Below are positions 2,455 to 56,642 of a stretch of 64,000 nucleotides of DNA, in pieces. Each line of letters begins with the position of its first letter. Position 1 is the first letter of the stretch. Location of the stretch: the NCBI GenBank assembly GCA_965218795.1, contig OZ244653.1, positions 3,584,001 to 3,648,000 on the forward strand. The letters run 5' to 3'. This DNA comes from a bacterium. GTDB lineage: Bacteria; UBA8248; JACPRG01; G963555815. The position numbers were made by a program, and so were the translations under genes. The notes beneath the pieces were generated by a model, which did not search any database, was not told the origin of the DNA, and was given only the letters and a program-made list of their open reading frames with translations.

Positions 2455-2791
2455 CGGACATCGATCCGGATTTCCGGTCGAGCCCCCGGAGTGGACGTGA
2501 TCACGGACGTACCGGCGTCGTAGCTTTTCATGGCGATTTTTCAGGCCATTCTCCCGGTCTTCTTTGCAATTTCGAGCTTCGGCAACGGATCCGCCATGAA
2601 TGCCTTCGTACAGTCAGCTTGGCTTGACAATTTTCCCATTATCCTATTGGTTCGGGCACCAAGACCTACCGTTATGCTCACATCGACCGTCAGCGCCTGC
2701 GCCGTCGCCGCGATTCGCCTGCTCGCGCTCACCGGGCTGCCGGCGTAGCGAGGTGCTCGGCCCGGAGCGGGTCGACAATTCAGGCATGTTC

Positions 2792-2820
2792 TTGACAACC
2801 GAAGCGGGCCGACATAGGCT
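2792..2820 (+). promoter_or_regulatory. Sigma70-type promoter
   Basis: TTGACA-N17-TAGGCT, about 60 nt upstream of the AAGGAG-preceded ATG at 2882. Confidence 0.6.
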
Positions 2821-2881
2821 CGGTTTGCGTGTCAGGTTCCGAGTCGAATCAGGTTTGCTTATTGGAAAGGAGCTAAAGATC

Positions 2882-3382
2882 ATGAAGAAGGTGATTTCTA
2901 CACTGTTTGTATTTTTGGCATCCGTGAGCATGGCAAGTGCCGCCCAGTATTTGCAGGCATCCTCAACGATTACCCAGTGTCCGGGCAAGGCGCCCGAGAT
3001 CGTTAAAATGGATATAACGGATGCAGCCAATGGCCTTGCCATAAAAAACAACAAAATCACTGTGAGTGAAGCTGGAGCCTATCTGATAGTCGCTGCGCCC
3101 CAGGTTGGCCGCGAAGGTGGAGGACCTTTTGGTTGTTTTGACTTATGGCTGCGTGTCAATGGAAAGGATGTAGCGAATTCCAATGTACAGCTGTGTCAGG
3201 ATGCCGACAGCATGGCGAAAGACGTCATCATATCGCAGGGAATCGTCCCACTGAAGGCGGGTGATGTTGTAGAAGTCATGATGTCAGCCAATAACCCAAA
3301 GGCGAATATGTGCATTGAAGCTATCCAGCCGGCCGGTGAACCCTTGGTGCCTTCGATCATTTTCTCCATGATCAAGTATTGA
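2882..3382 (+). CDS. Secreted protein with a probable C1q/TNF-like (BclA C-terminal-like) beta-sandwich
   Basis: RBS AAGGAG; signal peptide MKKVISTLFVFLASVSMASA; patterns ITVSEAGAYLI, LWLRVNG, VPLKAGDVVEV; 4 Cys; visibly lower GC than flanks. Confidence 0.65.
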   Translation: MKKVISTLFVFLASVSMASAAQYLQASSTITQCPGKAPEIVKMDITDAANGLAIKNNKITVSEAGAYLIVAAPQVGREGGGPFGCFDLWLRVNGKDVANSNVQLCQDADSMAKDVIISQGIVPLKAGDVVEVMMSANNPKANMCIEAIQPAGEPLVPSIIFSMIKY

Positions 3383-4254: not shown

Positions 4255-4283
4255 TTGAGTGGAAAGCCTGTGGGGGCTATACT
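4255..4283 (+). promoter_or_regulatory. Sigma70-type promoter for the radical SAM gene
   Basis: TTGAGT-N17-TATACT. Confidence 0.55.
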
Positions 4284-4396: not shown

Positions 4397-5176
4397 GTGG
4401 CTTTCGAATTGCCCCCCCGCCTGTGGATCTATACGAATTACGATTGCAATTTCTCTTGTTCCTACTGTGTTGTCCGATCCCATCCAAAAGCCGAGTCTCG
4501 GGCGATTGAGTTCGATACATTTCGCCGGCTGATCAAAGAGGCTGTGGTTTTGGGATTCCATGATCTCTATCTGACGGGAGGAGAGCCCTTTCTCCATCCG
4601 GGATTTTTCGATCTCCTCGATTACGCGGTTCCCCGGATCAAGACGACGATACTGACCAATGCCACGGTCGTGACCCCGCGTCGCCTCGAGCGGTTCAAGA
4701 GTCTTCCGCCCGAGAATCTGAGTTTTCAAATCAGCGTGGATAGCGCAGACCCGGCCCGGAACGATTTTTTTCGCGGCTCAGGAAGTTGGGAACGGACAAT
4801 GGCCGGGGTGGGGCAATTGATGGAGTTGGGCTTTCGGCCGAAAATTGGCGGTACCGTGACTCCCGAAGCGGAAGGAGATGCTCAAGACTTCATGAAATTT
4901 TTTGCAGAACGGGGATTGGCTGAATCGGATGTCTTCCTCCGGCCGCTGATCAAGAGGGGATTCTCTTCACAAGGAAAGGAGTTGTTCGCAGACCGCGTTC
5001 TCCCGGAAGTGTGCGTCGACCGGGACGGGGCCTACTGGCACCCGTTGTCCACGGATTCGGATTTTCTTGTCACCCGCGAAATCTTTCCTTTCCATCGCGT
5101 GGTCGCCCTTTTCCATGAAGAAATGGCGCGAAGGGAGCGGGAAGGCATCGAGAGCCTTCCCTATCAGTGAGCCTGA
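4397..5176 (+). CDS. Radical SAM enzyme (Rv1681/MoeX-like), probable C-terminal selenocysteine at UGA 5168-5170; start GTG 4397 or TTG 4310
   Basis: LWIYTNYDCNFSCSYC (CxxxCxxC), LTGGEPF, ILTNA, QISVDS, AYWHP; ends CAG TGA GCC TGA followed by a SECIS-like hairpin. Confidence 0.85.
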
Positions 5177-5182
5177 GCCCCC

Positions 5183-5200
5183 CGGCTCCGGTCGGAGCCG
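5183..5200 (+). promoter_or_regulatory. Candidate bacterial SECIS hairpin (could also act as a terminator)
   Basis: CGGCTCC-GGTC-GGAGCCG; apical loop starts with GG, 19 nt after the UGA; followed by TGTTTT. Confidence 0.55.
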
Positions 5201-5480
5201 TGTTTTACCTCCCCCCGCCGTTCCCGGAAAGACAGGCTCCCGCTGAATCACCTGAGCGGGGAAGGGCGCTCAATGGGTTCTGAAACGAAAATCAATTGAT
5301 CTGCGGCGGGCAGGGTTGTAAGTAGTGATGAGGAGATGACGTAACTCTACCTTGGAGTGAGGCCGGGGAGCCGAGCGGAAAAAGAAAACCCAACGCCGAC
5401 AAGGTTCAGCAGCCCCGATGCCTCGAGCCCAGCGAGAATTTTTCAAGTCCTGATCAAGAGTGAAAACAGAGCTCAATTGG

Positions 5481-5506
5481 GCGCGGAAAAATCCCGCGCT
5501 TTTTTT
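5481..5506 (+). terminator. Intrinsic terminator-like hairpin in the helicase leader
   Basis: GCGCGG-AAAAATC-CCGCGC followed by T7, about 20 nt before ATG 5526. Confidence 0.55.
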
Positions 5507-5525
5507 GGGCGGATTGAACATCATC

Positions 5526-6800
5526 ATGGAGACAGCAGACCTGGTACTCTCTCAAACGGAACCGGTTCAACCCGGGGTTTCTGACCTGGAAGATTCATTT
5601 GAATCGCTGAGCCTTTCCGATCAACTGCTTCGAGCCGTCCGGCACGCGGGCTGGGAAAATCCAACACCGATTCAGAGCGAAGCCATCCCCGCGGCCCTGT
5701 CCGGACGCGACCTGATCGCCTGTGCCCAGACGGGCACCGGCAAAACAGGCGTGTTTGCGCTGACCATCCTGCAAAGAATGAAACCGGGCAAGGGCCCCCG
5801 GGCCTTGATCCTGACCCCCACCCGCGAGCTGGCCGTTCAGGTCTGTGAACATTTCGAGGCCTTGGCGAAATTCAGCAAATGCAAGGTCGTCCGTATTTAT
5901 GGCGGCGTGCGGATTGACCTGCAGGCGAAGCGGTTGTCCGAAGGGGTGGATGTGGTGGTGGCCACGCCGGGGCGCCTGCTCGATCACGTTCGGCGCAAGA
6001 ACGTTCATTTCAAGGGACTTCAGTTCCTTGTCCTGGACGAAGCCGACCGCATGTTGGACATGGGGTTTGCCCCGGACATCCGGAAGATCCTCAAGCTCAT
6101 CCCCCGAAAGCGCCAGTCGATGCTCTACTCGGCGACGATGCCGGTGGGAATCCGCTCCTTGGCGGGCGCCGCGCTTCACGATCCGCTGACGATCGAAGTC
6201 GGACGACGTTCGTCTCCTGCATCCGGCGTGGAGCACTCGGCCTTCGCCATTTCCAAAGTGATGAAGATGGATCTGCTTCTCCACATCCTGGAAAAGCGGG
6301 AGTACGATCGCCTGCTCCTGTTCGCGCGGACCCGGCAGGACGTCAACTCGCTGGGCCAGAAGCTGGCAAGGGAAGGCTTCTCGATGGACTTTATCCACTC
6401 GGATCGCCGCCAACGGGAGCGGGAAAAGGCGTTGTCCGATTTTCGGAAAGGCAAACATCAGATCCTGGTGGCCACCGACGTGGCGGCGCGTGGGCTGGAC
6501 ATCGAAGGCATTCAGTATGTGATCAACTACAACGTCCCTGAAAACCCCGAAGATTACATTCATCGAATCGGCCGGACCGGACGCGCGGAGGCCAGCGGCT
6601 GGGCCATCACGCTCGTGACCCTGGATGAGGAGCGTCAATTGGGAGCCATTGAGCGCCTCATCGGAAAGAAGATCGACCGCCACCGGGAGTCGGATTTCGA
6701 TTATGGCGATTTCGGCTACGTCCTGGATCTGGAAGACAAGCGGTCCGGCTCATCGGCCCCCTCCCTTCGGTCCCGGGGCAGGTCCTTCCGGCGTCGTTGA
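5526..6800 (+). CDS. DEAD-box RNA helicase (RhlE-like)
   Basis: Q motif, AQTGTGKT, PTRELA, TPGR, DEAD, SAT, ARGLD, HRIGRTGR; Arg-rich tail. Confidence 0.95.
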   Translation: METADLVLSQTEPVQPGVSDLEDSFESLSLSDQLLRAVRHAGWENPTPIQSEAIPAALSGRDLIACAQTGTGKTGVFALTILQRMKPGKGPRALILTPTRELAVQVCEHFEALAKFSKCKVVRIYGGVRIDLQAKRLSEGVDVVVATPGRLLDHVRRKNVHFKGLQFLVLDEADRMLDMGFAPDIRKILKLIPRKRQSMLYSATMPVGIRSLAGAALHDPLTIEVGRRSSPASGVEHSAFAISKVMKMDLLLHILEKREYDRLLLFARTRQDVNSLGQKLAREGFSMDFIHSDRRQREREKALSDFRKGKHQILVATDVAARGLDIEGIQYVINYNVPENPEDYIHRIGRTGRAEASGWAITLVTLDEERQLGAIERLIGKKIDRHRESDFDYGDFGYVLDLEDKRSGSSAPSLRSRGRSFRRR

Positions 6801-6878
6801 AGGTTTTTTCGCGTTACAAAACCTGAAAGAATGGATTGTATCCCGACGAAGCGGGCGCGCTCTCCCGGCCCGCTGGAG

Positions 6879-7057
6879 CCTGTCCCGAGTGCTCCTGTCG
6901 GGGGCGGGAATGACAGGCTCAGCCTTCATGAGCCCCGACACCGCCACCGCGGGCCTCCGGCGGCGGTTTTTTTACGCCTGGCCCAAGCCGTCACCCCGGC
7001 AGGCTTCAGGTCGGGGTCCACTATCCTGGACCCCCGATTTAAGCACTCGGGGGTGAC
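6879..7057. repeat. Intergenic REP-like palindromes
   Basis: GCCTGTCCCGA..TCGGGG..GGGAATGACAGGC (6879-6919) and CTGGACCCCCGA-TTTAAGCAC-TCGGGGGTGAC (7026-7057). Confidence 0.6.
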
Positions 7058-7265
7058 GATCTGGGGGCAGGCTTTAGTCGGAGGTTCCCCGGACACCTGT
7101 CCGAGGGAGAGGGCCGGGGGATGGTCGTCGGCCAGGGGATATCCTCGGGCCATCGGTCGGACAGCCGCTCGATCAGGCTCGCCGCCCGGCGCATTAGGAT
7201 GATCTCGCGCTGTGATGGAAGGGAAAGGATGAGCGCGCGGTCACCGAACTTTGCGCGCGGCCTAT

Positions 7266-7308
7266 AAAGAAAGGGAGCGGCGAATGGCTCACCGCTCCCT
7301 TTTCTCTT
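7266..7308. terminator. Bidirectional intrinsic terminator
   Basis: AAAGAAAGGGAGCGG-CGAATGGCTCA-CCGCTCCCTTTTCTCT. Confidence 0.8.
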
Positions 7309-7509
7309 GTTTTCATGCCGGGAATTTGGTTGACCCGGCCTACGGGCTACCGCCCGTATTGATCACCGCGTCAACAGACCGCCCATCCGAACATACGCGG
7401 CCGGCGAACGGATGGGCGAGGAAAAGGCAGCTTCAGAACCCTTTTCATTTGCAACAGCCCTTACAGTGTTGAGACCGCTTTTGAGGGGCTCGATCTTCCA
7501 GCCCTCTAT
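7266..7509 (-). ncRNA. Candidate structured small RNA (or small-peptide mRNA), family not recognised
   Basis: Five consecutive hairpins between a putative minus-strand promoter (TTCCCA-N17-TATATT, 7544-7516) and the terminator. Confidence 0.4.
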
Positions 7510-7621
7510 ACTGTCAATATATGTCTTTTCTGGATTGATGGGAAGACTTTTTTTGGCCGTCTCAACCTGCCGCGCCCCTTGTGGGGATCCTGCGCGGTTC
7601 GCACCGGGCGACGCCGTCGAG

Positions 7622-7837
7622 CTAATCCTCCTGGCTGTCCCGGTATTCCTCCAACCAGGCCATCTGAATGGCTTCGAGGATCCCCTCGTTGGATTCCTTC
7701 GGATTGTCGTCAAAATCCTCCAATTCCGTGACCCACCGGTGAAGGTCGATGAATCGGACAGTGAGGGGATCAGTATCCGGAAACCGCTCGAAGAGCTGGA
7801 TGCCGATTTCTTCGGATTCGTGCCACCCGAATTTCAT
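7622..7837 (-). CDS. iscX: Fe-S cluster assembly protein IscX (YfhJ)
   Basis: DPLTVRFIDLHRWVTELEDFDD..NEGILEAIQMAW; last gene of the isc operon. Confidence 0.93.
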   Translation of the reverse strand: MKFGWHESEEIGIQLFERFPDTDPLTVRFIDLHRWVTELEDFDDNPKESNEGILEAIQMAWLEEYRDSQED

Positions 7838-7839
7838 AT

Positions 7840-8259
7840 TCAGTGACTGTGGCCTCCGTCATGAGCGTGTTCGGCTTCGTGATGATGATCGTGATCGTGG
7901 TCATGGTCGTCCCCGTGCGAATGCCCCCCGATGATCCCCGGAGCATTCCGGTTGTGCATGGGGACCTCGATGATCAACTCCCCTTCGCCGGGACCCTCAT
8001 CCCCCAGGATGCACTGACAGCTGAGGCGGCTGGTCAGCGTGACGCCTGTCGCCTCGTCCAGCTGATCATCTTCTTCCTCGGTGGCTTCGGCGAAATGCTC
8101 CATGCCCTGCCGGACGATCACGTGGCATGTGCTGCAGGCGCAAAACCCTCCGCAGTTGCTGTCAATGAAGACACCGTTGTTGTTGGCCAGTTCGAGGATG
8201 CGATCCCCCTCTTCGGCCTCCACCGTGACATTATCGGGAACGAACGTGACCTTGTACAT
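7840..8259 (-). CDS. fdx: ISC-type 2Fe-2S ferredoxin with a His/Asp-rich C-terminal tail
   Basis: CGGFCACSTCHV..SRLSCQ; tail GGHSHGDDHDHDHDHHHEAEHAHDGGHSH. Confidence 0.92.
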   Translation of the reverse strand: MYKVTFVPDNVTVEAEEGDRILELANNNGVFIDSNCGGFCACSTCHVIVRQGMEHFAEATEEEDDQLDEATGVTLTSRLSCQCILGDEGPGEGELIIEVPMHNRNAPGIIGGHSHGDDHDHDHDHHHEAEHAHDGGHSH

Positions 8260-8307
8260 CTTGAATCTCACCCCCCCTTCGGGTTCGCCGACCGTCGCGC
8301 CGTTGGA

Positions 8308-10176
8308 TCATTCCTTCAAGAATTCTTCCAGGGCGTGATCCTTCACGGCGGCTTTCAGCGTGTGGTCCATCAGCGTCTCGGCGAGGTGCCGGGCGGCTTT
8401 GTCGAGTCGTTCCAGACAGGGTTGAATCGCTTGCCGCTCCTCGCCTTCGACGGCGTCTTCCAAGGCATTGACGGCCTTTTCAATATCTTCCTTCTCTTCC
8501 TCCGCGATGAGTCCGGCTCCCTGAGCGAGCGCCTTCCGGGTGGCGCGAATGACGGTTTCCCCTTCGGTTTTCGCTTCGATGAGCAGTCGGGCGTTCAGGT
8601 CCGATTCTGCGAAATCGAAGGATTCGCGGATCATCCGCTCCACTTCCTCGTCGGTCAGTCCGTATGAGGGCTTCACCTCCACCGACTGAACCTTTCCGGT
8701 TTTCTCGTCTCGGGCGGCGACGTTGAGGATGCCGTTGGCGTCGATCAGAAAATTCACCTCGATTCGCGGAGCCCCCGCCGGCATGGGTTCGATGCCTTTG
8801 AGCTGAAACCGCGCCAGGCTCCGGTTGTCCTCGACCCGTTCACGTTCGCCCTGGACGACGTGAATGTCCACGGAAACCTGCCCGTCGACGTAGGTGGTGA
8901 ATGCCTCGCGGGCGCTGGTCGGGATCGTGCTGTTCCGGGGGATCAGGACGCTCGTCACGCCGCCCATCACCTCGATGCCGAGAGAAAGCGGGGTGACGTC
9001 CAGCAATAAAACCTCCTGGACCACGCCCGCCAGAATCCCGGCCTGGACCGCCGCCCCCCGGGCGACGACCTCCCGCGGATTCAGTTCCGTGTGCGGGGTC
9101 TTTCCGAACAGGTCCTCGACCTTGCGGCGGACCATCGGGATCAGCGTTGTCCCGCCGACGAGTATCACTTCGCCCAATTCCGAGGCGGAAATTCCCGCGT
9201 CCTTCAGCGCCTGCCGGCAGGGGGGCAAGGTCCGATCCACCACGGGCGCCGCAAGGGACTCGAAGGTTTCCAAGGTGAGGGTTTCGCTGAAGGCTCCTCC
9301 ATCGGGAAGGGGCACCTCGACGTCCGCCCGCCCTCCGCCGGAAATCCGAATTTTCGCTCTTTCCACGGCGTCTTTGAGGGATTGCAGGAGGCTCCCGTTC
9401 TCGCTCACCCGGATTCCGGCGGCCTTCTCCACGGCCGGCCGAAAATGATCGATCAGGACGTTGTCGATATCATCCCCGCCCAGGTGGGAATCCCCGTTGG
9501 TGGACAGGACTTCGAAGATCCCCTCATGCAGCTTGAGGATGGAGATGTCGAAGGTCCCGCCGCCGAAATCATAGACGGCGATTAGCCCCTGCTCCTTCTG
9601 ATCGAGGCCGTAGGCCAGCGAGGCCGCGGTGGGTTCGTTGACGATTCGCAGGACTTCCAGACCCGCAATGCGTCCCGCATCCTTGGTCGATTGCCGTTGG
9701 CTGTCGTTGAAATAGGCGGGGACGGTGATCACGGCTTTCTTCACCTCCCGGCCCAGCCGGCTCTCGGCCCGCTCCTTCAGCTTGCGCAGGATCAGCGCGG
9801 ACAGCTCGGGCGGGGTGTATTCCTGATCCCCGACGCGTACCTGGATAACCGAGCCTTCGCCGGAGGAAACCTCGAACGGCAGGTACGGGAGGTCGTCCCG
9901 GATGTCGGCGAAGGATCGGCCCATGAAACGCTTGATGGAGGAGATCGTCCGGTCCGCCCGTTCGATGGAATGCCTGCGCGCCTCATCGCCAACGGTGATC
10001 CCGTCTTCAGCAATACCGATCACCGACGGGAGAACGGCATTGCCTTCCTCATCCGGAATCACTTGCGGCTCGCCTTCATCCATATAGGCGACTACGCTCT
10101 TCGTGGTTCCCAGGTCGATTCCAATGATGGATTCCGGACCGCTGGGGCCGGATCCGCTCAGGCTGACGTAAGGCAA
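8308..10176 (-). CDS. hscA: Fe-S chaperone HscA (Hsp70 family)
   Basis: [32 protein letters not shown]; isc context. Confidence 0.93.
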
Positions 10177-10838
10177 CTCATCGCCTCCGCAATGTCGTTC
10201 ACGGCGTTCTGCACGTATTTTCGCTGGGCGAGGAGCGAACGGAGCTCTTCAACAATCGCGCCCGTACCCTCCCCGGCGTCCCAGCGGGAAAACAGGTCGT
10301 TCAGGCCGTCTCTCAAAGCCGTCTCTTTCTCCTCAAACCGGCTCTTGTCGTTCTCCAGGGGTCCGGCCAGCTTTCTTTGTTCCTCTTCATCCTGTTCCAT
10401 CCTGAAATCCTGAAGCCTTTCATTGAACTCGAAGACCTCCTCCAGCAGTTCCTGGGGCGGCGCGGCGGCAATCTCCTGATCAGAACCCTGGGCCAGCTTG
10501 ACCAGATATTCCGCACGGGTGAACGGCTCCCGGAGCGTCCGGTAGGCCCGGTTCAGGGTGGCCGAAAGCTCCAGACTGAGTTGCTGCTCGTACGGACCGG
10601 CGCCCTGGAAAAAATCGGGATGGTACTTCCGGCTCAGCTCATAGAAGCGACGCTCCAGATCCTCGCCGTCGATGGTCAACCGCCGCGAAAGCCCCAGGAT
10701 GCTGAAAAAATCCGTCTTCGGTCCCGCGGGCTGGATTTTTGAGCAGTGCTCACAAAAGGGACCGGGCTCCGTCTCCCGGCTGCAGTTCCAACAGAGACTC
10801 TTGGTCGATTCTCCGGAAGCCGGGAGCGCTTCGCTCAT
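10158..10838 (-). CDS. hscB: Co-chaperone HscB with an N-terminal CxxC..CxxC domain
   Basis: CWNC..CEHC..IQP, J-domain [16 protein letters not shown]. Confidence 0.92.
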
Positions 10839-11032
10839 TCTTCGAATCCCGTCCTCGTACGTGCGGACGGCACAGGCTTCTCCGTCCTCGCCGATAGCAA
10901 AATCGCCCTTCAAAAATCAAGGGCCTTCCCGGGGGCTTCTGGCGCGCCCCTGTCCGGAAAGGCCCCGGTATTGTTGACATTCGATTGTCGGACTCCGGTC
11001 TGCGGACCGAAAGGACCGCGCCCGAACGGGTC

Positions 11033-11356
11033 TTACGCCGTAAAAGAACTGCCGCAGCCGCAGGTCCGTTTGGCATTCGGATTCTCGAACCGGAATCCGC
11101 CGCCGAGCATGGAGTCCTCGTAGGTCAGCGTTGTGCCTCCGAGGTAGAGAAGGCTTTTCATATCCACGACCACTTTGATGTCGTCGATATCTAAGACCTT
11201 GTCCTTTTCCTTGATCTCGGAATCAAAGCCCAACGTGTAGGACAGACCTGAGCAACCTCCGCCCTGGATGCCGACCCGAAGGGCGTATTCCTCGAGATCC
11301 TGATCTTCCTGGAGTTTTTTCACCTGCTGAATTGCGGCGTCCGTCAGGGTGAGCAT
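11033..11356 (-). CDS. iscA: A-type Fe-S carrier IscA
   Basis: GGGCSGLSY, NPNAKRTCGCGSSF. Confidence 0.95.
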   Translation of the reverse strand: MLTLTDAAIQQVKKLQEDQDLEEYALRVGIQGGGCSGLSYTLGFDSEIKEKDKVLDIDDIKVVVDMKSLLYLGGTTLTYEDSMLGGGFRFENPNAKRTCGCGSSFTA

Positions 11357-11398
11357 CCTTACCCGCCTCCTTATCAATGGCTCCATTCGGCCCCGCCG

Positions 11399-11806
11399 TT
11401 ACGAGACCGCGCTCTGGCTTTCCGTTTCAGACTTCTTTTCCTTGTAATCCTTGACCGCCGCCCGAATGGCGTCCTCCGCCAAAACCGAACAGTGAATCTT
11501 GACCGGAGGGAGACTCAACTCTTCCACGATATGCGTGTTCTTGATCTCCAGGGCCTCGTCCGGGGTCTTTCCCTTCATTATCTCCGTGGCCAGGCTGGAG
11601 CTCGCAATGGCGCTGCCGCAACCGAAGGTCTTGAACTTGGCGTCTTCGATCTGGCCTTCGTCATTGACCTTGATTTGCAGCTTCATGACGTCGCCGCATT
11701 CGGGGGCGCCGGCCAAGCCGGTGCCGACTTCCGGGTCGGACTTGTCCAGGCTTCCCAGGTTTCTGGGATGGTTGAAGTGATCCACAACCTTGTCGCTGTA
11801 AACCAT
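11399..11806 (-). CDS. iscU: Fe-S scaffold IscU
   Basis: APECGD, FGCGSAIASS, LPPVKIHCS. Confidence 0.97.
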   Translation of the reverse strand: MVYSDKVVDHFNHPRNLGSLDKSDPEVGTGLAGAPECGDVMKLQIKVNDEGQIEDAKFKTFGCGSAIASSSLATEIMKGKTPDEALEIKNTHIVEELSLPPVKIHCSVLAEDAIRAAVKDYKEKKSETESQSAVS

Positions 11807-11851
11807 ATCGACGCTCCTCGATCGTCTCGTTGGGTGTGTGGTGGAACGCCT

Positions 11852-13066
11852 CTAGTGTTCGCCCCACTCGATGGCGCTCAGGTCGATCCCCTCTTTCGCC
11901 ATTTCGTACAATGGGCTCATCTCGCGCAGGCGGTCCACAACTTCCACGACCCGCCCAATCGTGTAATCGACTTCCTCTTCGGTGTTGAACCGCCCCAGGC
12001 CGAAACGAAGGGAGGAGTGAGCCAGCTCGTCCCCCCGCCCGATGCCCTTCAGAACGTAGGACGGCTCCAACGTGGCGGACGTGCACGCCGAACCGGAGGA
12101 AACGGCGATCTCATTCAGACCCATCAGCATCGACTCGCCTTCCACGTAGGCGAAGCTCAGATTCAAAGAGTGAGGCAGCCGTTCGGCGGGGTGTCCGTTC
12201 AGGTGGACTTCCTCCATCCGCTCGGTGATCCCGCTGTGCAGCCTGTCCCGGAGGCCGATCAGCCGCCGGCCTTCCTCTTCCATCCCTTCCGCGCAAATTT
12301 CGCAGGCCTTGCCCAAACCGACGATGCCCGACACGTTCAGCGTGCCGGAGCGCATGCCGCGCTCATGGCCGCCGCCGTCGATCATCGGGGCCAGCCGGAC
12401 CCGGGGTTTTTTCCGCCGGACATAGATGGCGCCCACGCCCTTGGGGCCGTAAAATTTGTGGGCGGAGAGGGAGAGCAGGTCGATGTTCATGGCCTGGACG
12501 TCGACGGGAATTTTTCCCACCCCCTGCACGGCATCGGTGTGAAACAGAACGCCGCGCTCCTTGCAGATTTTGCCGATTTCGGCGATGGGGTTGATGGTGC
12601 CGATCTCGTTGTTGGCCAGCATGATCGAGACCAGGATGGTGTCGTCCCGCAGGTGCTCGGCGACTTCGTCCGCCGAGATCCGCCCGTACTCGTCGGGCTC
12701 CAGGTAAGTGACCTCGAAGCCTTCCCGATCGAGCGTCTTGGCGCTGTCGAGGATGGCCTTGTGCTCGATCTTGCAGGTGATGATGTGGCGGCCCTTCTCT
12801 TTGTACATGGCGGCCACGCCCTTGAGGGCGAGGTTGTCGGATTCGGTGGCTCCGCTGGTGAAAATGATCTCTTTGGGGTCGGCGTTGATCAGCGCGGCCA
12901 CTTGGGCCCGGCTCTCATCCACGGCCTCCTCGGCCCGCCATCCAAAGGCGTGGTTGCGGCTGGCCGCGTTACCGAAATCCTTCAAAAAGTAGGGCTCCAT
13001 GGCCTCCAAGATCCGCGGGTCAACCGGGGTGGTGGCATGGTTGTCCATGTAGATGGGCAGTTTCAT
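11852..13066 (-). CDS. iscS: Cysteine desulfurase IscS
   Basis: [28 protein letters not shown]. Confidence 0.97.
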
Positions 13067-13491
13067 TCCTCGACTCCAACCGGGTTTTGGCTCATCTCCG
13101 CCAGCGAGATGCCGTCCAGCAGTTCGAAAAGCCTTTTTTGCAGTCGCTTGATGGGGTCCCGCATGGTGCACTTGTCCAACGCGGTGCAGGGGTTCGCCGC
13201 ACTCTCGTCGAAGCAACTGGCAATCCTCAACGGACCCTCGAGGGCCAACACGATGTCGGCCACGCTGATTTCGCCCGGGTGGCGGGCCAGTGTGTACCCT
13301 CCGGCCGGACCCGCGTGCGAAACGACCAAACCATCCTTCGCCAGGCATTGCATCGCTTTCGCGAGCAATTCCACGGGAAGATCGTAATGCGTTGCAATTT
13401 CCCGCGCATTGCTCAACTGCTCCTCCTCCAAAGAGGCCAAGTGGCTAAGCGCAAGGATCGCGTAATCGGTCTTTTTCGTCAGACTCAACAT
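13063..13491 (-). CDS. iscR: Rrf2-family regulator, IscR-like
   Basis: [16 protein letters not shown], three C-terminal Cys; first gene of the isc operon. Confidence 0.85.
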
Positions 13492-13584: not shown

Positions 13585-14568
13585 TCAACCCCCGATGGCG
13601 CTCATTCCCCGGTCGGGCTGGACGAACTCCATCTGGCCGATCAAGTGGCCGGGTGTTTTCGTCAGGACCACGTTTGCGAGCCACTCCGTGATTGCCTCAT
13701 CGTCCGCGGCATGCCGGAGCAACGTCTTGATATCGTGCTCGGTCGTCGAAAACAGACAGGTGCGGATCATGCCGTCGGCGGTGAGCCGGATCCGGTTGCA
13801 GGTGGCGCAGAACGGCTCGGTGACCGTGGGGATGACCCCCACCTCGCCCTGACCGTCCTTGTACCGGTATTTCGTGGCCGGGTCGTGGGGGTTGTCCCGC
13901 GCGAGCTCCAGCTCCCCCACCTTTTCGAGCCCCTTCAGGATTTCCTCCGCCGGGAGAACCTTCTTCATTTCCCACTTGTGCTGGGCGTCGAGCGGCATGT
14001 ACTCGATGAAACGGACGATATGCCCGGTCTCGCGGGCCCACCGGCCGAAGTCTTCGATTTCGTCGTGGTTGAACCCGTTGATGGCCACGGCGTTGATCTT
14101 GATGGGCTGGAAGCCCGCCTCGACCGCCGCCTGGATGCCGTCCAGCGTCTGCCGGAACATGTCCCGCCGGGTGATCTCCAGGAATTTCTGGGGATTGAGC
14201 GAATCGAGGCTGATGTTGATCCGGCGAAGCCCGACGGCGTAGAGGTCCCTGGCCAGTTTGGGCAGCAAGACCCCGTTGGTGGTCAGCGCCAGGTCCATGT
14301 CCGGGTTGATATCCAGCATCAGGCGGATGAGCTTGTCGAGCTCCTTGCGCAGAAGCGGCTCACCGCCGGTCAGGTGATAGCTGTCAAAGCCGAGAGCGGT
14401 TGTGATCCGAACAACGCGGGCGATCTCTTCAAAGCTCAGGATCTTCTCTTTCGGGAGCCAGACCATTCCCTCTTCCGGCATGCAGTACTGGCAGCGGAAG
14501 TTGCACTGGTCGGTCACCGAGATGCGGAGGTCGTTGTGCTCGCGCCCGTATGTGTCGTAAAGCCCCAT
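13585..14568 (-). CDS. moaA: GTP 3',8-cyclase MoaA
   Basis: LRISVTDQCNFRCQYC, FCATCNRIRLTADG..CLF, C-terminal MSAIGG. Confidence 0.96.
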   Translation of the reverse strand: MGLYDTYGREHNDLRISVTDQCNFRCQYCMPEEGMVWLPKEKILSFEEIARVVRITTALGFDSYHLTGGEPLLRKELDKLIRLMLDINPDMDLALTTNGVLLPKLARDLYAVGLRRINISLDSLNPQKFLEITRRDMFRQTLDGIQAAVEAGFQPIKINAVAINGFNHDEIEDFGRWARETGHIVRFIEYMPLDAQHKWEMKKVLPAEEILKGLEKVGELELARDNPHDPATKYRYKDGQGEVGVIPTVTEPFCATCNRIRLTADGMIRTCLFSTTEHDIKTLLRHAADDEAITEWLANVVLTKTPGHLIGQMEFVQPDRGMSAIGG

Positions 14569-14608
14569 CTGCCTGAGTCTCGGTTGAGGGTGGCGGCGGA
14601 TCCCAATC

Positions 14609-14640
14609 AAAAAGGCCGGTGCCCCATGGAGACGCCGGCC
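14609..14640 (-). terminator. Intrinsic terminator in the moaA leader (riboswitch expression platform)
   Basis: Minus strand GGCCGGCGTCTC-CAT-GGGGCACCGGCC-TTTTT. Confidence 0.7.
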
Positions 14641-14664
14641 CGGCGAACGGAATCCGCTGGCCCG

Positions 14665-14766
14665 CGTTCTCCTTTCCAAGCACGGGAGGCTGGACGGTCA
14701 CCCCTCCAACCCTGTCGGCCCTGGGGTCATGGCCCATCCGCCATGCACCCGCGGGCTCGGAGAACG
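14665..14766 (-). ncRNA. Moco/Wco (Tuco) riboswitch, P3-lacking variant
   Basis: Minus strand CGTTCTCCGAGC..GGGCCGACAGGG..GCCTCCCGTGCTTGGAAAGGAGAACG; P1 closes; upstream of moaA. Confidence 0.85.
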
Positions 14767-14966
14767 GCAATGCTGTCATTCAACGTTCGTCTATTCAATA
14801 TACGCCGGTGTTCCCAGGGGTCAAGGAGGATCGGACGTGAGAAAAACCTCCTCCAGGCGTCCACGGGGAAGCGCGTCCCGGCAAAACGGCGTTTGAGGGG
14901 GGACGGCGACCAAGGCTTTGGAGATGACGCGGCGTCTGAGCGCGACGACCGGTTCGCGTTGATTGC

Positions 14967-14978
14967 GGGGGGGGGGGG
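14967..14978. repeat. G12 homopolymer
   Basis: Direct reading; intergenic, just past the 3' end of the R-M remnant. Confidence 0.9.
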
Positions 14979-14997
14979 AGGAGGCGGAATTGCCCGA

Positions 14998-15494
14998 CTA
15001 AGCCAGCAGCAACGCCAGCGTTTCGACCCAGCTTTTCAGATTGCGCTCGGCGAGCGCCTTGTCGGTCAGTTCCTTATCGGAGTGCGCGACATAGGTGTTG
15101 CGGAAGTCATTCACCTTCGTGATGTGATCCAGCAGTTTCTGCGCTCCCGGCAAACGGAACGACTCGCGGACGGCGGCGAACACGCCGTCGAGTTCCGTGT
15201 CGTCGTTCAGCGCATAATCAAGGCACGAGCGCAGCAAGCCGAGCACGGAAAGCGGGTTTCCGTACACCAGCCCACGCTTCAGGTTTTTCGCCATGTTCTG
15301 ATAGTGGTTGCGTGACCTCCTGTCCACGTCCTCTAGGTACGGATTGAACCAGTTTTCCTGATCAAGCCGGTTTGTGGGAACCTTATCGCGTAAAAGACTT
15401 AGGATCATCGCCTTGGAGGCCTCATCGAACGGACCCAGTAATGTATTGAAGACGGGAGAGAAGTTCGGAGCGTCTTCCTTGCGCTCGAAAAACC
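14998..15494 (-). pseudogene. C-terminal fragment of a probable type III restriction (Res) protein with a HEPN-like domain
   Basis: Frame is open up to the junction (FFERKEDAPNFSPVFNTLLGPFDEASKAMILS..); Rx4-6H motif RNTYVAH. Confidence 0.55.
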
Positions 15495-15807
15495 GATGTA
15501 GATGAGACTGATCGCCCCCTTGAACTCCTCAAGCAGCGAGGCCATCACCAGCTTGTTGTCGCCCCAGATCAGCCGATTCCGAAAATCATCCCGGTGGGCC
15601 TTTCCCTCATTGAATATCGAACCCTGCGCCTCGGCGCGCGCGCGGCTCGTCAATCGTCTCGATCTTCTGGAGCGGCATGGCGAGGCCGGCAGTATTGACC
15701 TCGCGGCGGTTGCCGAACTCATCGTATTTCCCCTCCCAGACCAGCTCGGTTTTCATCCGCGAGAGCGGGTGCGGGTTATCGGGGCCGAAGGCTGTGTTGT
15801 CGCTCAT
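15495..15807 (-). pseudogene. N-terminal fragment of a type III Mod DNA methyltransferase, frameshifted and truncated
   Basis: KTELVWEGKYD, NRLIWGDNKLVM..ISLIYI, broken exactly before the DPP(F/Y) motif; frameshift in a (CG)n run at about 15633-15644. Confidence 0.8.
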
Positions 15808-15899
15808 TGTGAATGGGTCTCGTTTGTTGGAGGATTCTGACGGCCTGGGTGAGATTTCATGAGGCGCCGTCCTTCAACATAACACGCTCTCCGCAATCC

Positions 15900-15929
15900 T
15901 TGACACGGCTTTGGCCCCGATTCTAGAAT
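15900..15929 (+). promoter_or_regulatory. Sigma70 promoter of the folD operon
   Basis: TTGACA-N18-TAGAAT. Confidence 0.65.
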
Positions 15930-15978
15930 CTCTGTCTTGAAACTCCCCAATGGACCTTTCACCTTTGCAGGAACCGTC

Positions 15979-16845
15979 ATGCCGGCGCAAATCTTGAGCG
16001 GTAAGGAGATCGGAGAGTCCATCCGCCAGGAGCTCAAAGCCGAAATCGACGGGATTTCGGCGGGCGGCGGCGGGAGACCCAAACTGGCCGTCGTCCTGGT
16101 CGGGGACGACCCCGCCTCGCACGTCTATGTCCGCAACAAGGAGAAGGCCTGCGTAAAGGTCGGCATCGAAACCGGGGACTGGAAGCCTCCCGCCGACATT
16201 TCACAGGACGAGCTCATCGCCCACGTCGACAGGCTCAACGAGGATCCGGCGGTGAACGGCATCCTGGTTCAGCTTCCGCTTCCCGATCACATCGACGAGG
16301 CGTTCGTCCTAGAGCGGATCCTGCCGGAAAAGGACGTCGACGGCTTCCACCCCTGCAACCTGGGCCAGTTGGTTCTCGGGGCCGACGTCCTCGCGCCGGC
16401 CACGCCCTCGGGCGTCATGGCCATGCTCGACCGTTCGGATATCGAGATCCTCGGGAAGAACGTGGCGATGGTCGGGCGCAGCCGGATCGTGGGCAAGCCG
16501 CTAGCGGCCATGTTCACCAACCGATCCGCCACCGTGACCGTCTGCCACAGCAAGACCCGCGACCTCAAGGAGGAATGCCGCCGGGCGGACATCGTCGTCG
16601 CGGCCATCGGGCGGGCCCGGATGATCGACGCCGGGTACGTCGGCGACGGCGCCGTGGTCATCGACGTGGGCATCAACCGGGTGGACGACAAGCTGGTCGG
16701 CGACGTGGATTTCGATTCGGTCATCGGCAAGGTCAGCGCCATCACGCCGGTTCCCGGCGGGGTGGGTCCGATGACGATCGCCATGCTGCTGCACAACACC
16801 CTGAAGGCTTTCAAGCTCCAGACGAAGGCCGGCGTCGTCTCATAA
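15979..16845 (+). CDS. folD: Methylene-THF dehydrogenase/cyclohydrolase
   Basis: YVRNK, GILVQLPLP, KDVDGFHP, TPVPGGVGPMT. Confidence 0.97.
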   Translation: MPAQILSGKEIGESIRQELKAEIDGISAGGGGRPKLAVVLVGDDPASHVYVRNKEKACVKVGIETGDWKPPADISQDELIAHVDRLNEDPAVNGILVQLPLPDHIDEAFVLERILPEKDVDGFHPCNLGQLVLGADVLAPATPSGVMAMLDRSDIEILGKNVAMVGRSRIVGKPLAAMFTNRSATVTVCHSKTRDLKEECRRADIVVAAIGRARMIDAGYVGDGAVVIDVGINRVDDKLVGDVDFDSVIGKVSAITPVPGGVGPMTIAMLLHNTLKAFKLQTKAGVVS

Positions 16846-54920: not shown

Positions 54921-55007
54921 TACCCGCCGGGCGCTTGAGGCCCGGGCGCGGCGTTCGCATTCACCCGTTACACGGCCTTTGAGCCCTGGTTGGGGAGGAC
55001 AAACAGA

Positions 55008-56642
55008 ATGGCAGTCAAAGAATTGGCATATGAACAGCAGGCCCGGTCCGAAATTCTGTCGGGCATGGATCAGTTGACGCGCGCCGTGGAGGCCACGCTG
55101 GGGCCGGCCGGTCGAACCGTGATCTTGGGAAGGAAGTGGGGCTCACCGCTGGTGACCAAGGACGGAGTGACGGTTGCGAAAGAGATCGACTTGCCCGAGC
55201 CCTTCGAGAACATGGGCGCGCAGATGGTGAAAGAGGTGGCCAAGAAGACCAACGACGACGTCGGAGACGGAACGACGACGGCCACCGTCCTGGCCGAGGC
55301 CATCTACCGCACCGGGCTGAAGTACGTTTCGGCCCAGGCCAATCCCGTGGACATCAAGCGCGGGATCGATGCCGCCGTGGAGACGGTGGTGGGCGAGCTC
55401 AAGAAGCAAAGCCGTCGGATCTCGGGGACGGAGCGAATCGCCAAGGTGGCCGCGGTGTCGGCCAACGGCGAGGAATCGATTGGGGAGATCATCGCAGCCG
55501 CCATCGACAAGGTCGGACGGGACGGTGTGATCACCACCGAGGAAGGCAAGGGGATCGAGATGTCGCTCGAGGTGGTCGAAGGGATGCAGTTCGATCGGGG
55601 CTATCTCTCGCCTCATTTTGTGACTCACCCGGACCGTTTGGAATGCGAGCTGGAAGACGTGTCCCTGTTGATCCACGAGAAGAAGATTTCCAATGTGAAC
55701 GAGCTTCTGCCCATCCTCGAGAAGGTCTCCGCATCTGGAAGATCCCTGCTGATCATCGCCGAGGATGTGGAGGGCGAAGCTCTGGCAACCTTGGTGGTCA
55801 ACAAGCTGCGCGGCACCCTGAAGATCGCAGCGGTCAAGGCGCCGGGTTACGGCGATCGCCGCAAGGAGATGCTGGAAGATATCGCGGTCCTGACGGGCGG
55901 ACGGATGATCACCGAGGATCTCGGCATCAAGCTGGAAGCGGTTCCTTTGGAAGACCTCGGCCGGGCGAAACGCGTGCTGATCGACAAGGAGAACACCATC
56001 GTCGTCGAGGGTGCGGGAACGGCCCGGGCCCTGAGCGGACGGTGCGCGCAGATCCGCGCGCAGATCGAGGAAACGACCTCCGAATATGACCGCGAGAAAC
56101 TTCAGGAACGCCTCGCCAAGCTGTCCGGGGGCGTGGCGAAGATCCTGGTCGGCGCGGCCACCGAGACGGAAATGAAAGAGAAAAAGGCGCGGGTGGAAGA
56201 CGCGCTGAACGCCACGCGGGCGGCGTTGGAGGAGGGTATCGTGGTCGGCGGCGGTGTGGCGCTGGTCCGCGCCGCCGCCGACCTGGGCTTGCTGGAGCTG
56301 CCGGGCGATCAGAACTACGGCGTAAGAGTGGTTCAGGATGCGCTGGGCGATCCGCTTCGGATCCTCGCCGAAAATGGGGGTTATGAGGGTCCCGTGGTCC
56401 TGCACGACGTCAAGAAGAAGAAGGGCGCGGTGGGCTTCAATGCGGCCACCGGCAAGATGGAGAATCTTGAAAAGGCCGGGATTGTGGATCCCGTCAAAGT
56501 GACCCGCTCCGCGCTGCAGAATGCGGCCAGCCTGGCGGGTGTCCTTCTGACGACCGAGTTGCTGGTGACGGAGAAGCCCGAGGATGAAGAGGATGAAGAA
56601 GGCGGCGATCACTCCCACGGCGGCCACGGCCACGCCCACTGA
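55008..56642 (+). CDS. groEL: Chaperonin GroEL with an acidic, His-rich tail
   Basis: [38 protein letters not shown]; tail [15 protein letters not shown]. Confidence 0.97.

Follow-up and report, generated by a model that had tools for sequence, protein, structure and literature searches.

Does a UGA close to the end of a bacterial radical S-adenosylmethionine (SAM) gene stop translation, or is it read as selenocysteine (Sec)? The question is raised by a stretch of 64,000 nucleotides (positions 3,584,001 to 3,648,000 of contig OZ244653.1, GenBank assembly GCA_965218795.1), referred to here as the window. A radical SAM gene in this stretch starts at GTG 4397, and its frame of 257 codons ends with the residues ESLPYQ (CAG 5165-5167) at a TGA (5168-5170), which is followed by a single GCC codon (5171-5173) and a second TGA (5174-5176). 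A preliminary description of the DNA had read the ending in the same way and had proposed that the first UGA encodes Sec in place of a cysteine (Cys), with a selenocysteine insertion sequence (SECIS) outside the coding sequence (CDS). This proposal is supported by an invariant Cys column in the homologues, by a TGA at every corresponding site and by a covarying hairpin, and UGA 5168 very likely encodes Sec.

The window protein belongs to the radical SAM superfamily, as its match to PF04055 indicates (E 3.4e-22; 79.8 bits vs. a cut-off of 29.5). A longer version of the frame starts at TTG 4310; the start at GTG 4397 agrees with the N-termini of close homologues, which read MAF(E/V/Q)L. Upstream of the gene, one sigma-70-like promoter pattern was found where 0.4 were expected in shuffled sequences, and it is a pattern match only. 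The coordinates of all features are collected in Table 1.

A protein homologue search returned 1746 relatives, and the endings were read in the 120 closest listed. In 117 of these the last residue of the database protein is the one that follows an aromatic residue (FT 54, FQ 24, YQ 16, FR 16, others 7). The remaining three are a fragment and two proteins which continue as FHCG and YHCGVV. This pattern is the signature of a family cut two residues early by gene callers (three in a few relatives), as the preliminary description had suspected. Among representatives at 50% identity, an exhaustive search gave 43 proteins at E<=1e-30. Seven of them end in aromatic-x and 13 in aromatic-x-Cys followed by one or two residues, the rest being fragments or garbled at the end.

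A scan of species-representative genomes at the DNA level gave 80 loci, in which the matching frames were read to the first stop and beyond. The layout of the window, here called Sec-type, was found in 28 loci: [FY]-x-TGA, one codon (two in 3 loci) and a stop. These are L001-L003, which are nearest to the window (57-66% protein identity), and 25 loci labelled Chloroflexota, Thermomicrobiales or similar. A further 38 loci, here called Cys-type, end in [FY]-x-Cys-Ala/Gly, with an extra V or I in 11 (tails CA 26, CAV 9, CAI 2, and CG 1). They come from Actinomycetota, Dormiibacterota, Gemmatimonadaceae, Polyangiales, and one member of the Chloroflexota (L004).

With the window included, TGA is the first stop at 29 of 29 Sec-type sites, and neither TAA nor TAG occurs there. 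The second stop varies (20 TGA, 5 TAG, and 4 TAA), and at this rate the chance of 29 straight TGA codons would be 0.69^29, or about 2e-5. The codon between the stops encodes Gly at 20 sites (GGG 9, GGA 6, GGC 3, GGT 2) and Ala at 6, where all four codons are used; three sites have Ser-Lys instead (AGT-AAA or AGC-AAG). This codon varies at synonymous positions only, and in that it looks translated. An alignment of 50 sequences, 26 Sec-type (with TGA rendered as U) and 24 Cys-type, placed the 26 UGA codons and the 24 Cys residues in one invariant column. The only other invariant Cys columns are Cys17, Cys21, and Cys24 of the CX3CX2C motif. Comparison of the relatives thus shows the UGA in the position of the invariant C-terminal Cys of an Rv1681-like radical SAM family. 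The endings FPCA and FHCA, which the preliminary description had named for such proteins, are real: they occur at the Mycobacterium persicum locus L049 and at L051, respectively, both above the cut-off of the Rv1681 family.

The other loci of the 80 comprise 11 from other radical SAM families and 3 which run off the contig. At about position 2549 of L078, a radical SAM gene of another family also ends in TGA-GCC-TGA. Its relatives (L069, L073-L076, L079, and L080) have varied stops and no aligned Cys, and the resemblance looks like a coincidence.

The best NCBIfam match of the window protein is NF049973, "Rv1681 family radical SAM protein", with 254.8 bits (255.3 with the two extra residues), and the next family follows at 71 bits. 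The cut-off of NF049973, 380 bits, is not reached. Genuine members, L049, L035 (Gordonia), L027, and L051, score 443-535 bits and align up to the last position of the profile, the Ala of FPCA or FHCA. Scores of 249-302 bits were obtained for the window protein, for three other Sec-type proteins tested (L007, L016, and L023, at 279-302 bits) and for two more Cys-type clades. These proteins lack the first ~70 positions of the profile; the match of the window protein begins at position 73 of 326, and its close homologues have their N-terminus at the same place. The terminal motif of the profile, an aromatic residue, any residue, Cys and a small residue, is present in the window protein with Sec for Cys. 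The window protein is therefore a short-form sister of the Rv1681 family and not a member by the NCBI criterion. An identity as MoaA was rejected (TIGR02666, 54.9 bits vs. a cut-off of 284), and Pfam found no Mob_synth_C domain. In actinobacterial Cys-type loci a very long frame lies upstream (L026 8558-10780, 741 aa; L040 8138-10798, 887 aa), and a database representative of 565 aa, P0128, has the domain at residues 304-537. Such frames may represent gene fusions, or they may merely be long and open because of their GC richness.

A maximum-likelihood tree was built from 50 sequences with the last five residues removed. It covers 26 of the 29 Sec-type and 24 of the 38 Cys-type sequences; truncation or frame breaks excluded L022, L045, and L059, and 14 Cys-type rows were dropped to limit the size of the set. 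On this tree the Sec forms share one clade (support 97/90), in which L004 is nested as the only Cys form, and mapping the Sec or Cys label takes two changes. Comparison shows a clade of these genes, made up of Chloroflexota and the lineage of the window, which went over to Sec and retained the [FY]-x-[U]-[G/A] tail together with a covarying SECIS. The window, L001, L002, and L003 group together inside the Chloroflexota Sec clade (100/92, 100/98, 100/100). The nearest named relatives of the window GroEL (54990-56639, + strand) are metagenome-assembled genomes labelled Nitrospinota (77% identity), other records reaching 84-85%. Because the Sec-type gene nests among Chloroflexota while GroEL is nearest to Nitrospinota genomes, these sequences suggest that the Sec-type gene passed between phyla.

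If the UGA is decoded as Sec, a SECIS should be found next to it. The preliminary description had pointed to a hairpin, CGGCTCC-GGTC-GGAGCCG, with a G-led loop 19 nt past the UGA. It is present as described: a perfect 7-bp stem with arms at 5183-5189 and 5194-5200, beginning 12 nt downstream of UGA 5168, with the first loop base at 19 nt. The hairpin lies wholly past the second TGA, and thus outside the CDS, as had also been claimed. The published consensus for bacterial SECIS (bSECIS) elements gives a loop of 3-9 nt with G in its first two positions, a stem of 4-16 bp, a distance of 16-37 nt from the UGA, and a minimum free energy of at most -7.5 kcal/mol (PMC13188914, legend of Fig. 2). The window hairpin agrees on all four counts: its loop has 4 nt and opens with G-G, its stem has 7 bp, its distance is 19 nt, and its energy is -12.8 kcal/mol. 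Within the window, hairpins of this type follow 40 of 1983 TGA triplets (2%) at 16-21 nt and 159 of 1983 (8%) at 16-37 nt. The significance of the hairpin thus comes from comparison with relatives and not from the window hairpin alone.

A hairpin of 5-10 bp with its loop starting 16-21 nt past the UGA was found at all 28 Sec-type sites with enough downstream sequence, the window included. In Chloroflexota the loops are mostly CGUGC or GUU. In a strict test which counted perfect stems only, 20 of the 28 sites passed, each at a spacing of 16-21 nt. In Cys-type genes, a hairpin of the bSECIS consensus was found in 0 of 38 at that spacing and in 4 of 38 at any allowed spacing. Covariation was examined in a MAFFT alignment of the 28 sequences over a 6-bp helix. 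Pairing was seen in 89.2% of cells, compared with 36.7-54.8% when the partner was slid by 1-3 columns; 30 cells had double-sided changes, and five of the six pairs covary. None of 500 column shuffles matched the observed percentage paired, the cells changed or the covariation score. Moreover, a search of 1.30 Mb with a covariance model of the UGA and hairpin recovered the 28 sites used for training; no other match had an E-value below 0.48, and none fell at a Cys-type gene end. An independent model from the 24 Chloroflexota sites only ranked window positions 5168-5209 first (18.2 bits, E 0.051) in the 126 kb formed by the window and L001-L003.

The results that weigh against Sec concern the decoding machinery and the hairpin itself. 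A tRNA-Sec was not found in the 64-kb window or in 30 related loci. Neither were SelA, SelB or SelD found among 51 open reading frames (ORFs) of the window (NCBIfam, E<=1e-10) and 8 more (Pfam), nor in 96 ORFs scanned out of the 142 that measure 300-720 aa in 25 Sec-type loci (NCBIfam, E<=1e-70), most of the 46 omitted ORFs having been scanned with Pfam already or overlapping the gene. The gene could thus be a Sec-type relic in a genome which no longer decodes Sec, with UGA 5168 terminating translation or leaking via a near-cognate tRNA, and the enzyme working in a shortened form or being inactive. The nesting of the window clade in the Chloroflexota clade would fit such an acquisition by transfer. 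However, the scanned stretches are only ~1% of a genome, the longest contig listed for the GroEL cluster of the window measuring 5.17 Mb, so the absence of sel genes says little and neither supports nor refutes Sec. Chloroflexi are reported to possess both selenoproteins (PMC1794560) and tRNA-Sec (PMC5389517). All four members of the window clade keep the UGA, an Ala codon (GCC, GCA, GCT, and GCC), and the second stop. All four also keep a hairpin with a GGTC or GTTC loop, whose stems differ and are nevertheless complementary, and this retention in proteins of only 57-66% identity indicates continued selection. A relic is considered unlikely.

A second alternative is that UGA 5168 is an ordinary stop, the protein ends in PYQ, and the hairpin is merely an intrinsic transcription terminator. 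TGA is the commonest stop here (25 of 37 genes), and a terminator scan also flags 5183-5200 with a T-rich tail. Taken alone, the window hairpin is not beyond chance (-16.6 kcal/mol, z = -1.75, equalled in 9 of 200 shuffles). As further points against Sec, eight of the 28 sites, having 5-bp stems above the energy limit, failed the strict test, and no Rfam SECIS family was matched, a permissive scan of 5120-5260 giving only four chance-level matches. In the covariation analysis, the number of pairs with double-sided change was equalled in 67 of 500 shuffles and that of further pair types in 78. The independent model is weak on the window clade, where L002 came second at 13.1 bits, L001 reached 9.0 bits, and L003 was missed. 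Furthermore, a T-rich tail occurs at no Sec-type site but that of the window (5 T in 9 bases), which makes a terminator role possible.

Against termination, the same tail count speaks for the family as a whole. Each of the 27 other hairpins has fewer than 5 T in its tail, and in several the next gene begins a few bases on, yet their distance, loop and pairing are kept, with compensatory changes. An ordinary stop would also leave several features without an account: a first stop which is always TGA while the next one varies, a codon between the stops conserved at the amino-acid level, an invariant Cys at exactly that position in homologues, and the lack of such a hairpin at that spacing in Cys-type genes. 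The conserved hairpin element is not generally a terminator, and of the 28 examined only the window's own hairpin may also terminate transcription in its genome. An ordinary stop is very improbable. Genome-wide reassignment of UGA to Trp or Gly (as in codes 4 or 25), for which the in-frame UGA itself is the only argument, was rejected and has next to no probability, because all 37 family-matched genes of the window are intact under code 11 with 25 of them ending in TGA, the true end of this gene is itself TGA 5174, and homologues have Cys at the aligned residue; recoding would thus be local, as Sec insertion predicts.

Selenocysteine at UGA 5168 would be inserted as follows. The gene (4397-5176) would encode a 259-residue single-cluster radical SAM enzyme with Sec as its penultimate residue. 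Once the ribosome arrives at UGA 5168, the hairpin that begins 12 nt further on would act as a bacterial SECIS from a position entirely past the true stop. It would bring in SelB with Sec-tRNA(Sec), so that Sec258 and Ala259 are added before translation ends at UGA 5174.

What the residue might do was approached through structure. An AlphaFold2 model on the 50-row alignment had a predicted local distance difference test (pLDDT) score of 93.9 and a predicted template modelling score of 0.91, with a mean pLDDT of 89 for residues 251-259. Sequence matches to solved structures were weak and confined to the core (BlsE at E 1.4e-9, then SkfB, DesII, and viperins). A fold search returned only radical SAM structures with generic cores: BlsE, SkfB, SuiB, anSME, viperins, DesII, and the epimerase EpeE, with template modelling scores up to 0.66. 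Several of the matched enzymes act on nucleoside-linked or nucleotide-linked sugars, and in some radical SAM enzymes, including epimerases, an active-site Cys is the hydrogen-atom donor. In the 50-row alignment, no thiol or selenol outside the cluster motif is conserved except the C-terminal Cys or Sec. Probably, at a lower confidence than the Sec assignment, the tail swings this residue into the active site as a one-residue redox or hydrogen-atom donor, resolving a substrate radical made by the 5'-deoxyadenosyl radical. A sugar linked to a nucleotide or a lipid is the probable substrate. Genes for TIGR04282, GT2, NUDIX, and GT87 proteins near the Sec-type gene in Chloroflexota also speak for such a role. 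As a working model, the tail Cys or Sec would supply the hydrogen atom or electron which completes the reaction on a sugar-nucleotide-like substrate. Two points weigh against this model: the window gene stands outside the glycosyltransferase cluster seen in Chloroflexota, and the radical chemistry is wholly inferred. The fuller picture is put forward as tentative: a selenoprotein family that takes in the whole clade, with many Chloroflexota lineages and that of the window, in which a lone penultimate selenol on the tail would donate a hydrogen atom, or carry a selenyl radical, to a radical on a sugar linked to a nucleotide or a lipid.

Several known systems resemble parts of this arrangement. 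The Rv1681 family (NF049973; "MoeX" in mycobacteria) is like the window protein in its radical SAM core, in its C-terminal extension and in ending with an aromatic-x-Cys-Ala motif. The window protein and the tested Sec-type relatives (255-302 bits) differ in lacking the N-terminal ~70 positions and in having Sec instead of Cys. The name of the Rv1681 family does not mention selenium, and the function of the family is uncharacterised. Among radical SAM selenoproteins, TIGR04167/ArsS and TrsS are listed in a table of PMC13188914, and a family with a CUAEP/CCAEP tail has Sec in its C-terminal tail (Haft and Gwadz preprint). As in the window family, some members of the known groups have Sec where others have Cys. 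In contrast, the window protein reaches only 44.5 of the 300 bits required by TIGR04167, its 25 best NCBIfam matches include neither TrsS nor NF040546, and the known motifs GxxU and CU differ from the lone U in [FY]-x-U-[G/A].

A terminal Sec with its SECIS past the stop has been described in the DUF466 or KCU-star selenoproteins of Campylobacterales, in which Sec is the last residue and which standard searches therefore missed (PMC4607533). These are unrelated proteins of ~70 residues in which Sec comes last after Cys (CU), whereas the Sec of the window protein is penultimate and has no neighbouring Cys. The SECIS of the E. coli fdhF/fdhH type is like that of the window in its short GC-rich stem, its small loop with G and then G/U, and its fixed short distance from the UGA; the window hairpin lies in the untranslated region and not in the CDS. 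Rat thioredoxin reductase 1 (TrxR1), which ends in Sec498-Gly499, was made in E. coli with Sec insertion depending on an engineered 17-nt bacterial-type SECIS (PMC3834832). The tail of TrxR (Gly-Cys-Sec-Gly) resembles that of the window protein in its penultimate Sec, which is followed by one small residue and the stop. On our own reading of the printed sequence, the SECIS of the TrxR1 construct reportedly has a GGUC loop and lies past the stop codon. The U-A-stop layout of the window with its GGUC-loop hairpin is thus a natural counterpart of the engineered construct. The preliminary description had gone further and proposed a thioredoxin-reductase-like arm. The likeness of position holds, and the selenenylsulfide redox pair does not: TrxR is a flavoprotein with a vicinal Cys-Sec pair, whereas in the window family [FY]-x precedes Sec and no Cys outside CX3CX2C is conserved, which excludes a shared redox chemistry.

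Radical SAM selenoproteins and a terminal Sec with a SECIS past the stop codon are therefore already known. What appears to be new here is a Sec/Cys radical SAM family in which the Sec is C-terminal and the SECIS lies in the untranslated region. The family was not found as a selenoprotein in the literature and catalogues searched, which did not cover Haft and Tolstoy 2025 (mSystems) or the NCBI model text. The names NF049973, Rv1681, and MoeX do not occur in the 2026 review PMC13188914, and radical SAM is not mentioned in the deep-Sep paper (PMC12013277). Literature searches for Rv1681 or MoeX returned only papers which, by their titles, deal with tuberculosis diagnosis, biomarkers or vaccines.

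Table 1. Features of the window in and around the radical SAM gene and the neighbouring moaA-isc-hsc region.
Feature	Position	Strand	Basis
Sigma-70-like promoter candidate upstream of the gene (tentative)	4255..4283	+	Consensus scan, 9/12 matches, 17-nt spacer
Predicted full CDS, radical SAM (seleno)protein, 259 residues, end Y-Q-U-A	4397..5173	+	Translation with TGA=U
CX3CX2C (Cys17, Cys21, Cys24), binds the radical SAM [4Fe-4S] cluster	4445..4468	+	Columns invariant in 50 sequences; inside PF04055 match
UGA very likely read as Sec, residue 258	5168..5170	+	Aligns with invariant Cys; TGA in 29/29 Sec-type sites
Predicted Ala259 codon GCC and true stop TGA 5174-5176	5171..5176	+	Comparison with endings of relatives
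Predicted SECIS-type hairpin of the 3' untranslated region, 7-bp stem, GGUC apical loop 5190-5193	5183..5200	+	Consensus fit, covariation, model search
T-rich tail 3' of the hairpin, possibly lets the SECIS double as an intrinsic terminator	5201..5209	+	Terminator scan; role inferred
iscR (Rrf2), iscS, iscU, iscA, hscB, hscA, fdx	7840-13491	-	Downstream of moaA, same strand
True moaA, Radical_SAM + Mob_synth_C	13585-14679	-	Domain matches
Molybdenum cofactor (Moco) riboswitch, Rfam RF01055, 50 bits	14653-14774	-	Sole Rfam match at gathering threshold in the whole window

The surroundings of the gene differ between the two groups of Sec-type loci. Within ~3 kb, 23 Sec-type loci have as recurring neighbours a family-2 glycosyltransferase (8), DUF2064 (7), a DsrE-like protein (6), a second radical SAM/SPASM protein (6), GT87 (4), and NUDIX (3). 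The DUF2064 copy tested, from L015, scores 189.7 bits on TIGR04282 (cut-off 134), which NCBI names an arsenosugar-biosynthesis glycosyltransferase. A recurring Chloroflexota cluster was seen in L006, L007, L008, L013, L015, L016, L017, L019, and L021; it also holds unmatched proteins of 220-260 aa, and its second radical SAM/SPASM protein is below every NCBIfam cut-off. In the window, L001, and L002, a DEAD-box helicase lies downstream, followed by the isc-hsc cluster. Compared with window positions 4397-10176, the order radical SAM gene, DEAD-box helicase, 2Fe-2S ferredoxin (L001 only), and hscA on the opposite strand is kept, with iscS and moaA farther on in L001 and iscS in L002. The Moco riboswitch raised the possibility of a second selenoprotein gene, such as formate dehydrogenase, which was rejected since an ordinary moaA and the isc-hsc cluster were found there instead. 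The longest moaA ORF (TTG 14679) overlaps the riboswitch, and the real start is thus probably further in. Upstream of the radical SAM gene, a 260-aa ORF (2600-3382, + strand) contains an internal signal-peptide-like stretch, MKKVISTLFVFLASVSMASA..., and has no Pfam or NCBIfam family match. Near the Sec-type gene of L014, two MttB-like trimethylamine-methyltransferase genes were observed (13605-16535, - strand), one of which scores 422 bits on the pyrrolysine-type TIGR02369, below the cut-off of 525.

For the family, the finding would mean that "full-length" database proteins, when expressed or modelled, miss the probable catalytic residue, apart from which Cys-type residues are conserved in the cluster motif alone. 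It would add a radical SAM family to the bacterial selenoproteome, together with a natural and widespread SECIS which lies wholly behind the stop. Because only one or two residues follow Sec, this layout defeats alignment-based selenoprotein searches. Moreover, the alternation of Sec and Cys marks the C-terminal Cys of Rv1681/MoeX as redox- or radical-active, which gives a starting point for studies of its function. Should the lone selenol prove catalytic, this would be the first radical SAM enzyme in which a selenol or selenyl radical can be compared with natural Cys counterparts, including the mycobacterial Rv1681.

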